Below are positions 4,715 through 64,000 of a DNA stretch of 64,000 nt, piece by piece. A program made the translations under genes and the position numbers. The notes under the pieces are model-generated. The model did not search any database. It was not told the origin of the DNA and saw only the letters and a list, made by a program, of their open reading frames with translations. The DNA is from a virus (taxonomy: Duplodnaviria > Caudoviricetes): positions 17,559 to 81,558 of the IMG/VR virus record IMGVR_UViG_3300021256_000089; one strand, given 5' to 3'. Each line of letters begins with the position of its first letter. Position 1 is the stretch's first letter.

Positions 4715-5036
4715 ACATGCCTTCGTAGTACAGCATGCAATCGGATAACGCAGTTATCTTATACACAGGAAGCTTCTCGATGCCACGCATCGCTCCCTCA
4801 GGAATTACCCAGGGATACCGCGTGTTATCATTGACGATAAGCCTCACTTCTGTCAAAGCTTTCACTGTAAACACGTCAAGCCGCACCGGTTCATCCCGAT
4901 CAGGAGCATAGAAGATCACAGATTGCCCCTGTGTCAACACGATAGAGCCGTCGTTCTCCGCCTGAATAACCTGCTTAGTGTCGGCATCGATCGCATAAAA
5001 GCTGTTGACAATAAAGTTACTTTCAAGGATTGCCAT
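4707..5036 (-). CDS. Hypothetical protein
   Basis: AGGAGG RBS; stop overlaps next gene. Confidence 0.6.
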   Translation of the reverse strand: MAILESNFIVNSFYAIDADTKQVIQAENDGSIVLTQGQSVIFYAPDRDEPVRLDVFTVKALTEVRLIVNDNTRYPWVIPEGAMRGIEKLPVYKITALSDCMLYYEGMCE

Positions 5037-61896: not shown

Positions 61897-62159
61897 TTAA
61901 ACAGTCCCCTTCATTATGTTTTTGGAATGATTATATTCCATTACGTGTTTTTTCGAAAATGGATAAGAAGTTGGAGAGGAACTGTTCTATGGGTTTCCTG
62001 CGCTCGATGGGTTTTCAAGCGTAAACCCCACCCCGTTCCATTTATGAAGACCGCACTGGCCATGCGGTGTCAACCTCTTTGAACATGTTCACATCAGGAA
62101 ACTGGACCCTGATGTGAGCATTTAGGGGACATGAGCCCCGTTGCTCGAGGAGGCAACCT

Positions 62160-62333: not shown

Positions 62334-62339
62334 ATGCAG

Positions 62340-62407
62340 ACCAGCTCCTCTCTCCCGCCCAGTGAGAGAGGTGTTAATGCGCCTATCGTCGTGAGACGAG
62401 AGCTGGT
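62340..62407 (+). ncRNA. Candidate four-way-junction structured element
   Basis: ACCAGCTC/GAGCTGGT closing stem enclosing CTCTCTC/GAGAGAG, GTGT/GCGC and TCGTC-GTGA-GACGA hairpins. Confidence 0.4.
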
Positions 62408-62517
62408 TGGAAGTCCAGATGAAGCAATCCTGACGGCTGCAAAGCAGCTTGCGGTTTCATTCGCCGCAAAACAAAAGCCCATGGGACACGAGCCCATGCT
62501 CAGAAGGAGGTATCCCC

Positions 62518-62787
62518 ATGCTTAACACCATGTTCCATCTGATCGCCAAGGTAATCTGCGCTTCCGCCAAAGCAAAACACGAATTCATTGATGGAGACAT
62601 TTATGTCTCCGTCGATGGAGTATGCTTTGACAACGGTCGAATTTCACATTTCACGGACGGCTTCACTGGCCGTGAAGAAATCGATTTGACCATCGATGGG
62701 CACAACTACAAATGGGTTTCCGGACAGGAGCCCACCGAAGAAGCTGCCCAGTGGATCACCTGGGCGGCCGATTGGCTGCTCGACTAA
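62518..62787 (+). CDS. Hypothetical protein
   Basis: AGAAGGAGGT RBS before ATG 62518. Confidence 0.7.
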   Translation: MLNTMFHLIAKVICASAKAKHEFIDGDIYVSVDGVCFDNGRISHFTDGFTGREEIDLTIDGHNYKWVSGQEPTEEAAQWITWAADWLLD

Positions 62788-62793
62788 CACCTT

Positions 62794-62825
62794 CCCCTCC
62801 TCTTGCCCGGTGAGGAGGGGCTCTT
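62794..62825 (+). terminator. Hairpin, possible terminator
   Basis: CCCCTCCTC/GAGGAGGGG 9-bp stem after stop codon; weak U tract (CTCTT). Confidence 0.45.
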
Positions 62826-62872
62826 GACACTATCCCCTATGCAAAAGTAGAGGATAGTATCAGGAGAGTCCT

Positions 62873-62925
62873 GACGGCGAGCCAGCAAGCCGTTGAGCTG
62901 GCAAGCGAGGTGCAGACAATGCACC
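62873..62925 (+). ncRNA. Repeated pseudoknot-plus-hairpin motif, copy A
   Basis: GACGGC/GCCGTT, GCCAGC/GCTGGC, AAGCGA, GGTGCA/TGCACC; second copy at 63930. Confidence 0.55.
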
Positions 62926-63045
62926 AAGTAGGGTGCGCTTACGAAAGGCATCAACCGACATTGTGTTGGGCACGTCTTACAAGATGTGTAACTTGCGACG
63001 CGGCACAAGCCGCACCCCCTCGAAAGAGGGAGAAGGAGGTTCCTA

Positions 63046-63396
63046 ATGAAATACGGCATGAACATCGTACGCCCTTTGAAAGATTATCATCCATATGAAA
63101 AGTTTGAAGTAACCATCCTTCGTGATGGTCGCATTGATTGGCCCGTTATTTATGGCCATCGCCATTTCAATAATATAAGTGTATGGAGCAATGCTCCACG
63201 GGCAATTAGCGAACAGGCGCTAGAGGCAGTAAAATGTCACTACATCGGCAACATGAATATTGTCGCAGAATTCAAGCCATGGGGAGGGGATGACGAAGGA
63301 AGCGATTATCGCTTCTTTGCTCATCGAGTTCTCGGTGTTCTCAAAGACCCAGATGAGCCTGCCGAAGCTCCGGAAGAGCTTGCGATAGAAGCTTAA
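63046..63396 (+). CDS. Hypothetical protein
   Basis: AGAAGGAGGT RBS. Confidence 0.7.
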   Translation: MKYGMNIVRPLKDYHPYEKFEVTILRDGRIDWPVIYGHRHFNNISVWSNAPRAISEQALEAVKCHYIGNMNIVAEFKPWGGDDEGSDYRFFAHRVLGVLKDPDEPAEAPEELAIEA

Positions 63397-63441
63397 AACG
63401 GCTGACATCCCCTCGCGTACGGGATGTAAATCAGTACGCGA

Positions 63442-63487
63442 GTCCCCAACAGCTGATCGATCTGGTCGGTTGTTGGGGACTTTTCTT
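63442..63487 (+). terminator. Intrinsic terminator
   Basis: GTCCCCAACA/TGTTGGGGAC 10-bp stem plus inner G-U-rich stem, followed by TTTTCTT. Confidence 0.75.
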
Positions 63488-63532
63488 GTCCCGAATAAGC
63501 GTCCGGATAAAATCCGGAGAAGGAGGTATCCC

Positions 63533-63775
63533 ATGTATCAGTTTACAAGCTACGCATCTCCTCGTACTGAGCAGAAAGCTCGGTACATCGTGGCCATCTA
63601 CGTAGGCCACGAGACATATCCAGCAGTTAAGGAAAACCACAACACCCGCCGTGAGGCGGAAATGGCAATAAATTTCTATCGCCATCTCTTCTCTTCGATG
63701 AGACGGGCGCGTCTCATCGACACCTGGGGAGAAGAGCCCTCCATGACCATCTCCGGAAAGGAGGTGCGGTCATGA
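63533..63775 (+). CDS. Hypothetical protein
   Basis: AGAAGGAGGT RBS before ATG 63533 (track start 63470 runs through the terminator). Confidence 0.65.
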   Translation: MYQFTSYASPRTEQKARYIVAIYVGHETYPAVKENHNTRREAEMAINFYRHLFSSMRRARLIDTWGEEPSMTISGKEVRS

Positions 63776-63867
63776 GCCGCAAGGACATCCTCGCAGCCAT
63801 AGGATCAGTAATTGGCCTAATAGTAATTAATGGATTCATTGGTTTAGTGGAGATGTACATCCGCTAA
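63772..63867 (+). CDS. Small membrane peptide (31 aa)
   Basis: AAGGAGGT RBS; ATGA overlap; MSRKDILAAIGSVIGLIVINGFIGLVEMYIR. Confidence 0.55.
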   Translation: MSRKDILAAIGSVIGLIVINGFIGLVEMYIR

Positions 63868-63872
63868 ACCAC

Positions 63873-63894
63873 AGCCCGCTTCGGCGGGCTTTAT
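63873..63894 (+). terminator. Intrinsic terminator
   Basis: AGCCCGC-TTCG-GCGGGCT-TTAT. Confidence 0.7.
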
Positions 63895-63929
63895 GCCTGT
63901 AACTGCTAGCCATGCAGAATCAGGCACAC

Positions 63930-63983
63930 AACGGCGAGCCAGATAAGCCGTTAATCTGGCAAGCGAGGCACAGTCAATGTGCT
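63930..63983 (+). ncRNA. Repeated pseudoknot-plus-hairpin motif, copy B
   Basis: AACGGC/GCCGTT, GCCAGAT/ATCTGGC, AAGCGA, GGCACA/TGTGCT. Confidence 0.55.
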
Positions 63984-64000
63984 GAGAAGCATGCTCTCCA

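Follow-up and report, generated by a model that had tools for sequence, protein, structure and literature searches.

Structured leader and intercistronic RNAs are already known from the early gene expression of phages. The RNase III sites between the early genes of phage T7 and of the Bacillus phage SP82 each consist of one irregular hairpin spanning about two helical turns. The put RNA of phage HK022, which is found after PL and PR, is ~70 nt long, contains two stem-loops and a short triplex but no pseudoknot, and brings about terminator read-through via the beta' zinc-binding domain (PMC9378689). In exoribonuclease-resistant viral RNAs (xrRNAs), knot-like pseudoknots are the defining feature (PMC11702639), and compact two-hairpin/pseudoknot elements also stall ribosomes (PMC10520033). 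In coremin, a first hairpin (hp1) with a 4-bp stem and a YGAD or YGNNAD loop is separated by an 8-10 nt spacer from a second hairpin, hp2 (PMC10520033).

Here we describe an uncatalogued RNA fold, which belongs to no Rfam family, in a 64,000-nucleotide stretch (the window) of the 81,558-bp Caudoviricetes record IMGVR_UViG_3300021256_000089. A first-pass annotation had reported a twice-repeated pseudoknot motif at 62873-62925 (copy A) and 63930-63983 (copy B). Reading of the sequence bore this out letter for letter, and when the two copies were made into a covariance model, its only matches in the record were these two places (E about 1e-22; E about 1e-22 to 1e-35 over the searches of the record); short sub-patterns of the motif occur elsewhere in the record at chance level only, within coding sequence. 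The repeat is real but, as a unit, it is only part of a larger structure: the two copies make up the 5' third, the conserved core, of an intercistronic leader of ~170-230 nt that is densely folded.

Layout and distribution of the leaders

From its position, the leader is predicted to be part of the plus-strand early message, where it would follow the closing hairpin of the upstream cistron and lead up to the Shine-Dalgarno sequence (SD) of the next small early gene. Its elements follow one another in the order P0, pseudoknot 1 (helices H1 and H2), AAGCGA, H3 with its GNCAA loop, pseudoknot 2, H5, two to four further hairpins and a strong SD. The features of the two leaders in the window are as follows, where L262 and L263 are related contigs introduced below and copies C and D are the copies in L262.

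62794..62820, + strand: upstream hairpin T_A (CCCCUCCUC / GAGGAGGGG), found by folding and kept in copy C of L262
62821..62866, + strand: P0 of copy A, a long hairpin with basal helix CUCUUGA/UCAGGAG, found by folding; a homologous basal helix is present in all four copies
62873..62902, + strand: pseudoknot 1 of copy A, comprising H1 5' strand (62873-78), GA, H2 5' strand (62881-86), AA, H1 3' strand (62889-94), GA and H2 3' strand (62897-62902)
62903..62925, + strand: AAGCGA linker (62903-08, invariant) and hairpin H3 (62909-25) with a conserved GNCAA pentaloop
62926..62952, + strand: pseudoknot 2 of copy A, comprising alpha 5' strand (62926-29), AG, beta 5' strand (62932-36), alpha 3' strand (62937-40), A-rich loop (62941-47) and beta 3' strand (62948-52)
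62953..62973, + strand: AA linker, hairpin H5 (CCGAC/GUUGG) and invariant GCAC, from the alignment, helix table and RNAalifold
62970..63045, + strand: 3' domain of leader A, with H6 (62971-62988), H7 (GCGGC ACAA GCCGC, 63000-13) and H8 (CCCUC GAAA GAGGG, 63017-30)
63031-39, + strand: SD of leader A, AGAAGGAGG, with the ATG at 63046
63046..63396, + strand: ORF after leader A, 116 aa, of no known family
63874..63894, + strand: intrinsic terminator T_B (GCCCGC UUCG GCGGGC UUUAU); its 16-mer is found again behind the next gene and in L262
63895..63925, + strand: P0 of copy B (GCCUG...CAGGC, inner helix CUGC/GCAG), found by folding; compensatory and wobble changes in copy D
63930..63983, + strand: copy B, with pseudoknot 1 (63930-60), AAGCGA (63961-66) and H3 (63967-83), from the alignment, fold and covariance model
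63984..64000, + strand: first part of copy B's pseudoknot 2, which the contig end truncates; the rest is taken from L263 (minus strand, 1131-1011), followed by a 229-aa ORF

The two copies lie 1,057 nt apart with genes between them, in an early region that contains intrinsic terminators at 63440-63482 and 63874-63894 and a next one in L263. T_A lacks a U-tract and directly abuts P0, whereas in copies B and D, P0 follows 5 nt behind the terminator stem. The last letters of the terminator-like hairpins, 62820 and 63889, lie 52 and 40 nt before the starts of motifs A and B, respectively, close to the 35-50 nt given in the first-pass annotation. Pseudoknot 2 is of the H-type, with a 4-bp alpha helix, a 5-bp beta helix and an A-rich third loop. 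The hairpins in the 3' domain of leader A have homologues with compensatory changes in copy B, and the leaders have a G+C content of 52-59%.

Relatives of the locus came from a metagenome scan, which yielded a near-identical strain (L263) that supplies the sequence past the contig end, including the rest of copy B, and a diverged syntenic relative (L262) that carries two orthologous copies, C and D, copy C being the orthologue of A. The comparison set thus holds four distinct copies from three contigs (this record, L262 and L263), all from animal gut. A copy-A variant at the very end of L263 was left out, because the odd changes clustered in its last 75 nt were treated as assembly error. The family is narrow, comprising one lineage on three contigs; the further copies and the covariation that the annotation had asked for in relatives were found, in very close kin only. 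BLAST of a 4-kb region and of the 76-nt motif gave only chance matches, and no relative, in phage GenBank records. Patterns for pseudoknot 1 (loose and strict), H3, pseudoknot 2/H5 and a P0 19-mer were scanned across IMG/VR and the GTDB species genomes and their matches checked by script or models; those listed were chance matches only, mostly in coding sequence, and the strict pseudoknot-1 pattern had no match across all genomes scanned. No copy of the element is present in the whole records of L135-L137, whose terminase identity is 64-68%, a large-terminase search of GTDB genomes retrieved no prophage relative, and the 116-aa ORF has no relatives in IMG/VR. Among the runs listed as holders of the phage sequence there is no RNA run, and in the small-share runs X4 and X5 the motif falls outside their coverage.

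The ORFs that follow the four leaders (116, 229, 69 and 55 aa) are mutually non-homologous. Neither they nor the neighbouring ORFs match a Pfam family, and the sole PHROG match is a weak one (E 0.0017) to a 79-aa ORF upstream of copy C. The leader therefore travels with different, unrelated ORFan genes. Related-strain contigs from two runs depart from the window at 63892 and run on into what in L263 comes after the next identical terminator, so leader B, its ORF and the terminator (~0.95 kb) are absent in those strains. At least this one unit of leader, gene and terminator is thus a cassette that only part of the strains carry.

Comparison of this layout with the described systems reveals both likenesses and differences. 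Like putL and putR of HK022, the leaders are two paralogous early-region copies with compensatory differences and terminators downstream, and, as put acts independently of the gene that follows it, the leader could do so too. However, two pseudoknots and five or more hairpins are spread here over 170-230 nt, a terminator hairpin lies upstream, the element reaches the SD and no promoter was found adjacent, so that put itself was rejected as an identity. As in viral xrRNAs of the flavivirus, class 3 and coremin/xrRNA-C types (PMC11702639, PMC10520033), compact pseudoknots stand at the 5' border of the RNA to be preserved, in a tandem arrangement with a hairpin after them, and pseudoknot 2, like class 3 xrRNAs, forms by pairing of a hairpin loop to a 3' strand; the leaders differ from these RNAs in having no sequence or motif match and no three-way junction. 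The conserved core also lacks a coremin-type hp1, and a regex scan of the four leaders for coremin/xrRNA-C gave one candidate, the last hairpin of copy C directly before the SD, which has no counterpart elsewhere. With the T7 and SP82 RNase III sites the leaders share the character of repeated conserved RNA structures that lie between early cistrons, and they would likewise punctuate the polycistronic message and stabilise its products, but their conserved core is pseudoknotted and only the P0 hairpins of A and C are long enough to serve as substrate. As an uncatalogued covarying fold between phage genes, the element resembles the orphan structured RNA motifs of Rfam.

Covariation of the fold

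Copies A and B of the motif fold at z-scores of about -3.1 to -3.3 against dinucleotide shuffles, and the z-scores reach -4.6 for leader A and -5.9 for the full leader B. The annotation's observation that three helices persist despite sequence change held up in a pairwise alignment and helix table, in which all stem differences between A and B keep pairing and the GA, AA and AAGCGA linkers are invariant. Specifically, from A to B the distal pair of H2 changes from C-G to A-U and copy B gains one extra U-A pair; in H3, pair 3 changes from U-A to C-G, pair 4 from G-C to A-U and pair 1 from G-C to G-U; and pair 1 of H1 changes from G-U to A-U. Unpaired nucleotides are invariant and the stems covary.

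Across the core of all four copies, 95.2% of the pair cells hold standard pairs, as compared to 24-33% when the partners are slid, and double compensatory changes occur in six pairs, two each in H3, alpha and beta. None of 500 shuffles matched the covariation score or the percentage paired, although these statistics are weak in absolute terms because only four distinct sequences from one narrow lineage are available. In alpha and beta every cell pairs and each helix has two pairs changed on both sides, which supports the H-type pseudoknot. RNAalifold, run without user input, recovers H2, H3, beta and H5. It also proposed a long-range closing helix (columns 4-8 with 103-108), which was rejected, as its only varying pair forms in three of the four copies, whereas H1 and H6 each account for those columns in all four. 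The basal helix of P0 shows covariation when the A/C type is set against the B/D type, as read from the sequences (A-U versus C-G; U-A, U-U or G-C), and an A-to-G change in P0 of copy C produces a G-U pair.

In pseudoknot 1, the core of H2 is invariant and its distal pair covaries between C-G, A-U and U-G. A nested extension of H2 drawn by RNAfold (GC-GA...AA-GC) consists of bases that are all invariant across the copies. In the correct register H1 pairs in 23 of 24 cells and its pair 3 appears as C-G, U-G and U-A; its GGC/GCC core never varies, the flanking pairs change mostly on one side, and copy D contains one A-C mismatch. H1 is thus the least secure helix of the motif. In a standard H-type fold, the three connecting loops of 0-2 nt would be too short to accommodate a six-pair H1 beside an H2 of 6-7 bp, so A-form helix geometry makes a 4-bp H1 more plausible than six pairs.

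Searches for a known identity gave negative results. At gathering thresholds no Rfam 15 family matches anywhere in the window, and at E up to 10 the region 62700-64000 has chance matches only, none on the motif, so the check proposed in the annotation assigns no known identity. ARAGORN finds nothing tRNA- or tmRNA-like. A 93-aa minus-strand ORF (62784-63065) is broken by single-base indels between the orthologous copies A and C, which rules out a coding explanation. In type III antitoxin RNAs of the ToxI kind, pseudoknot repeats stand head to tail in tandem just before a ToxN-family toxin gene; this identity was rejected, as genes and a distance of 1,057 nt separate the copies here and the downstream ORFs lack a Pfam family.

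Message feature or DNA signal

It is highly probable that the element functions as a structured RNA on the plus strand and is not a promoter. Wobble pairs at H1 pairs 1 and 3, H3 pair 1, beta pair 2, H5 pairs 2 and 3 and in P0 are pairs only on the plus strand, and the diverged relative keeps every helix through compensatory and wobble changes, in agreement with the conserved structured RNA (regulator or processing signal) that the annotation had proposed. Its alternative, a single-stranded DNA promoter serving as start site for a polymerase borne by the tape measure protein, was not supported. N4 virion RNA polymerase reads the template strand, and at every one of its promoters a 5-7 bp stem carries a 3-nt loop; G-T wobbles on the plus strand become A-C mismatches on the template strand, the strand that N4 reads. 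Because a covarying P0 stands upstream of the motif, 5 nt past the terminator in B and D, the transcript should start upstream of the whole element, and a hairpin promoter for the tape-measure polymerase is therefore not supported.

A structured or sequence-specific promoter for a tape-measure-fused YonO-type RNA polymerase, or another DNA site, is accordingly a very remote prospect. In its favour, the 4,565-aa tape measure protein has a confirmed tape-measure domain, the element has small ORFan genes around it and the terminase region next to it, at what could be the first DNA end to enter the cell if the genome ends are there, and a perfect palindrome of 6-7 bp with a 3-nt loop (TCAGGA GAG TCCTGA, 62860-62874) directly precedes pseudoknot 1 in copies A and C, in the N4 format. 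That palindrome is missing from copies B and D, however, the helices of the motif have loops of 5-10 nt, and a site recognised purely as DNA would be under no selection for compensatory changes in six helices. Only one tape-measure-fused RNA polymerase has been characterised, in Thermus phage P23-45, and its promoters carry no hairpin but a linear AT-rich motif, strongly conserved and placed immediately before the transcription start (PMC10770324); at 52-59% G+C the leaders do not resemble it, and no AT-rich block common to eleven early intergenic regions was seen by eye. Sigma-70 promoter candidates were also rejected: the TTGACA within P0 of copy A, which is TTGATA in copy C, is not followed by a -10 hexamer at suitable spacing, and the -10-like CAGAAT that precedes copy B is CAGAAG at the corresponding place in copy D. 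As a whole, then, the first interpretation of the locus is partly supported.

Candidate functions of the leader

Tentatively, and with somewhat less than an even chance of being right, we propose that the leader insulates or protects the message of each early gene as cis-acting punctuation of gene cassettes. It would act in cis on the message, fold by itself regardless of the upstream sequence and leave the SD exposed just 3' of its closing hairpin. The knotted 5' part would form a barrier that keeps 5'-to-3' decay or processing from the downstream cistron; in a Bacillota host, which we assume from the Bacillota-type SD sequences, RNase J1 or RNase Y would be the enzymes in question. The outcome would be a stable, separately expressed message. 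To our knowledge, no exoribonuclease-resistant RNA has been established in bacteria or phages. Against protection, the element is more elaborate than a stabiliser needs, with its invariant linkers, GNCAA loop and two pseudoknots; the known 5' stabilisers of Bacillus are a simple hairpin or an SD-like sequence.

Several other RNA functions have to be weighed against message protection. The nascent leader might instead bind the host or phage polymerase, as a put- or EAR-like processive antiterminator, and let it read through the early intrinsic terminators. This is unlikely, although each phage has two paralogous copies with common structure and sequence, like putL and putR of HK022 (PMC9378689), set in an early region studded with such terminators, each followed by a gene and then a terminator, and although the function would not depend on which gene is downstream. 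Copies B and D lie directly past a canonical terminator and not behind a promoter; no promoter was identified near either copy in the window; two pseudoknots and a string of hairpins are unlike the two-stem put RNA; no antiterminator RNA such as EAR matches in Rfam; and the extension of the element to the SD is unneeded for an RNA that acts on polymerase. A further reading, quite unlikely in our judgement, takes the leader for an operator or aptamer whose AAGCGA, GNCAA and A-rich loop bind a phage or host protein or a small molecule so that several early genes would be controlled together, in translation or stability, as a post-transcriptional regulon or riboswitch. Invariant unpaired nucleotides within covarying stems, a size and complexity typical of aptamers and the presence of the same leader on several unrelated genes would all fit. 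Riboswitches, however, combine a ligand-binding aptamer with an expression platform and control a coherent gene set. Here no expression platform is recognisable: no conserved helix sequesters the SD, and no terminator helix overlaps the core. The element has a very narrow distribution, the downstream ORFans have no common pathway and no riboswitch class is matched at E values as high as 10.

It is highly improbable that the leader is a new self-cleaving ribozyme, cutting the polycistronic early message at the edges of the cassettes. The leader does have a pseudoknotted core of ~100 nt with invariant junction nucleotides, is positioned at the borders of gene cassettes and shares a loose topology with pistol, a likeness that serves as a lead only: in pistol a hairpin loop pairs with a 3' strand, after which come ..AAGCG.. 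and a hairpin. Yet models of pistol (RF02679), hatchet, twister, twister-sister, hammerhead and HDV give no match at E up to 10, the 0-2 nt between the 3' strands of H1 and H2 leave no room for the P2 helix of pistol, the conserved linker of pistol is absent as well, and the helices are strung serially with no compact multi-helix junction.

What sets this element apart from the structured RNAs already described in phage early expression is a fold outside the catalogues, built of two pseudoknots with invariant linkers, in a leader that moves as a unit with unrelated ORFan genes. It is doubtful, though conceivable, that it represents a new class of functional RNA, be it an exonuclease- or ribosome-blocking knot (which would be the first in a DNA phage, on early messages), an RNA whose target is the polymerase during transcription, perhaps a putative one fused to the tape measure protein, or a new self-cleaving ribozyme. 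Should it be only a lineage-specific stabiliser, it would make a modest addition to the orphan RNA motifs. If it blocks RNases or ribosomes or modifies the polymerase, the leader would be a natural portable "insulator" part and would open a way into how mobile gene cassettes secure their own expression.

Genomic setting and relatives of the repeats

Direct reading of the sequence confirmed the two repeats described by the first-pass annotation, copy A (62873-62925) and copy B (63930-63983), and a pairwise alignment with a helix table reveals that all stem differences between them preserve pairing (~12 positions differ overall). Folding of each copy beats that of shuffled sequences (z ~-3.2), a covariance model built from both finds just these two sites in the whole record (E ~1e-22), and the Rfam search suggested by the annotation returned no match to a known family. 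The phage is a temperate siphovirus whose record is linear, 81,558 bp long and 67% complete (CheckV); as the window is its final 64 kb, the contig end 17 nt past copy B is an assembly break, not the genome end.

No further copy was found in IMG/VR, GenBank phages or one genome per species for ~185,000 species, and one metagenome scan yielded two contigs containing the element. L263 (2,299 nt) represents a near-identical strain; it overlaps window positions 62822-64000 and continues for 1,131 nt, which completes leader B at its 3' end and adds a 229-aa ORF followed by the next terminator. L262 (9,761 nt) is from a relative that has diverged but keeps the gene order, with the small terminase, HNH protein and large terminase on one strand and the small ORFs on the other. 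The annotation had proposed a search of related phages, and L262 indeed carries an orthologue of each repeat, C corresponding to A and D to B. Three studies of animal-gut metagenomes account for the public runs containing the stretch, and leader A occurs with two differences in a bovine-gut run from another study. The ~75 nt at the start of L263 (minus strand 2299-2225) show clustered differences from the window, some of which would break helices H1 and H2 of copy A, and look like a contig-end assembly error rather than a natural variant. The element's covariance model R2 also gives a weak partial match (E 5e-4 to 2e-3) where a 4.9-kb viral contig ends (L274 1501-1576; IMGVR_UViG_3300009181_005657, 4772-4847). 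What it aligns is limited to a beta-like hairpin, AAC, an H5-like hairpin and GGGCAC, so this is either remote kinship with the core's 3' half or chance.

Gene blocks, neighbouring modules and terminator sites
Minus strand: large terminase, portal, Dit, 4,565-aa tape measure protein and other structural genes
From 61896, minus strand: structural gene block
Plus strand: integrase
62160 onward, plus strand: small ORFs with strong GGAGG Shine-Dalgarno (SD) sequences and structured spacers between them
62334-62517 (core 62374-62420); L262 minus strand ~6245-6190: second leader block
L262 minus strand ~5335-5270 and 4470-4405: third leader module
63874-63889; L263 minus strand ~305-290; L262 minus strand ~5590-5575: terminator hairpin GCCCGCTTCGGCGGGC

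Pfam contains no family for any small plus-strand ORF or its counterparts in relatives, and their sole PHROG match is weak (E 0.0017; a 79-aa ORF upstream of copy C). One hydrophobic ORF (31 aa, window 63772-63867; 46 aa, L262 minus strand 6412-6272) has a similar tail in both phages, ending ..INGFIGLVEMYIR or ..INAFIGLIEMIIR, and resembles a small membrane peptide encoded within the early region. The second leader block, TTAATGCGCCTATCGTCGTGAGACGAGAGCTGGT.G.AAGTCCAGA, differs from the element, is preceded by a hairpin in both phages and follows different genes; it probably represents one more structured leader module. The third, CATACCGGAG..AGGGAAAA..CAGCACTGTCACAAA, occurs twice in L262, once forming the 3' portion of leader D and once alone before another gene, and its hairpin covaries (GCGGA/UCCGC versus GUGCG/CGCAC). 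A ~90-nt block, TTCGAAAATGGATA..GGAGAGGAACTG..TATGGGTTTC..GCGTAAACCCCACCCCGT, is common to window 61950-62040 and L262 minus strand ~7300-7215, where the small-terminase side and the first early gene diverge. This candidate control or genome-end region shows no clear sigma-70 promoter.

Architecture and covariation of the leader

Similarity among the four copies extends ~50 nt upstream and 100-170 nt downstream of the motif, indicating that it is part of a much larger element. Between the stop codon and the start codon the leaders span 239-331 nt, and they fold with z -4.6 for A and -5.9 for B.

Elements of the leader, 5' to 3'
Closing hairpin of the upstream cistron: in B and D, canonical terminator GCCCGC-UUCG-GCGGGC with U-tract; in A and C, CCCCUCCUC/GAGGAGGGG without U-tract
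Upstream hairpin P0: basal helix homologous in 4/4 copies, covarying (A-U versus C-G; U-A, U-U, G-C); upper part longer in A and C than in B and D
Pseudoknot 1: H1 RAYGGC/GCCRYW and H2 GCCAG../..CUGGC; connecting loops GA, (N)AA and 0-2 nt
Linker AAGCGA: invariant, precedes H3
Hairpin H3: 5-6 bp, loop G-N-C-A-A
Pseudoknot 2: alpha 4 bp (RAGW/KCUY), 2-nt loop, beta 5 bp (SRUGC/GCAYS); no middle loop; third loop 6-8 nt, A-rich
H5: AA, then C(C/U)GAC/GU(C/U)GG, then invariant GCAC opening H6
H7 (3' domain): GCGGC-loop-GCCGC in A, B and D
H8 (3' domain): directly before the SD; CCCUC/GAGGG in A, CCGGC/GCCGG in B
3' end: AGAAGGAGG, then ATG

Pseudoknot 2, which went unnoticed in the first-pass annotation, has textbook H-type geometry. 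A perfect palindrome, TCAGGA GAG TCCTGA (62860-62874; 6-7 bp stem, 3-nt loop), overlaps the P0 3' strand and extends two bases into pseudoknot 1; copy C has one additional pair, B and D lack the palindrome, and it may be an alternative P0 conformation.

Covariation was tested on a 110-column core alignment of the four copies using our own pseudoknotted structure. Standard pairs occupy 95.2% of cells, as compared to 24-33% when the partners are slid, both-sided changes occur in six pairs (two each in H3, alpha and beta), and none of 500 column shuffles matched the observed covariation score or percentage paired. Unguided RNAalifold recovers H2, H3, beta and H5; the long-range helix it proposes fits more poorly than H1 and H6. 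A protein-coding cause of the conservation is excluded because A and its orthologue C differ by one-base indels. Drawn from four sequences of a single lineage, the covariation is good qualitative evidence, short of statistical proof. H2 and H3 of the helices originally described are secure, whereas H1, the pseudoknot helix, is less well supported. All copies preserve its 6-nt complementarity, compatible changes occur on one side (G-U to A-U and C-G to U-G), and one pair shows a stepwise double change (C-G, U-G, U-A). MAFFT places copy D one column off in H1, and in the correct register 23/24 cells are paired, with one A-C mismatch in D. The alternative, a nested extension of H2 (GC-GA/AA-GC), is invariant across copies. 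A-form helix geometry implies that connecting loops of 0-2 nt would not span six H1 pairs beside a 6-7 bp H2, so most likely just the four pairs YGGC/GCCR coexist with H2, leaving a third loop of 3-4 nt.

Strand, transcript start and cassette behaviour

Wobble pairs in H1, H3, beta, H5 and P0, which are G-U or U-G at positions that are G-C or A-U in other copies, form on the plus strand only. The annotation's reading of a conserved structured RNA is thus upheld by a sense-strand structure covarying across four copies. As P0 is conserved and covarying and begins 5 nt past the terminator stem in B and D, the RNA must start inside or upstream of the terminator, and the sequence implies that the element must sit within a longer transcript. 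No usable sigma-70 promoter was found near A or B; -35-like and -10-like hexamers near them are wrongly spaced or not kept in C and D.

A different ORF follows each of the four copies (116, 229, 69 and 55 aa, mutually unrelated), and the genes upstream of A and of C also differ. Related-strain contigs from two runs match the window until 63892, the terminator end, beyond which they carry what follows the next identical terminator in L263. They jump from terminator to terminator: the ~0.95 kb comprising P0, leader B, the 229-aa ORF and its terminator is thus an insertion/deletion unit flanked by identical terminators, a polymorphism that accounts for the contig break at this place. The 16-nt hairpin GCCCGCTTCGGCGGGC is identical at several gene ends in both phages. 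As two copies bound the cassette missing from related strains, recombination between terminators is suggested.

Possible roles of the leader

The element is a conserved sense-strand RNA structure between cistrons that is autonomous, mobile with its gene, and ends at an exposed strong SD. We tentatively favour a cis-acting punctuation role: the leader would fold independently of whatever sequence lies upstream, present the ribosome-binding site immediately 3' of its closing hairpin, and, through its knotted 5' part, block 5'-to-3' decay or processing from entering the downstream cistron. Such a role would be consistent with the known action of knot-like pseudoknots in RNA viruses (PMC11702639, PMC10520033). 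A put- or EAR-like antiterminator is a less probable reading, a protein or ligand operator somewhat less so again, and a new ribozyme is improbable; what likelihood is left falls to conservation without function.

Least probable is a DNA-level promoter. The annotation's proposal of start sites for a tape-measure polymerase is unsupported on four counts. A linear, AT-rich promoter serves the only characterised enzyme of this type (PMC10770324). An N4-type hairpin would have to form on the opposite strand, transcription must begin ahead of the motif, and the lone N4-format palindrome is limited to copies A and C. The putative tape-measure polymerase may nevertheless transcribe the early region, with the leader acting on that enzyme.

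Phage intercistronic or leader RNA elements are already known as a broader kind. This RNA fold is uncatalogued and unusually rich in structure, with covariation that is clear though thin, and the element is restricted to one animal-gut phage lineage.
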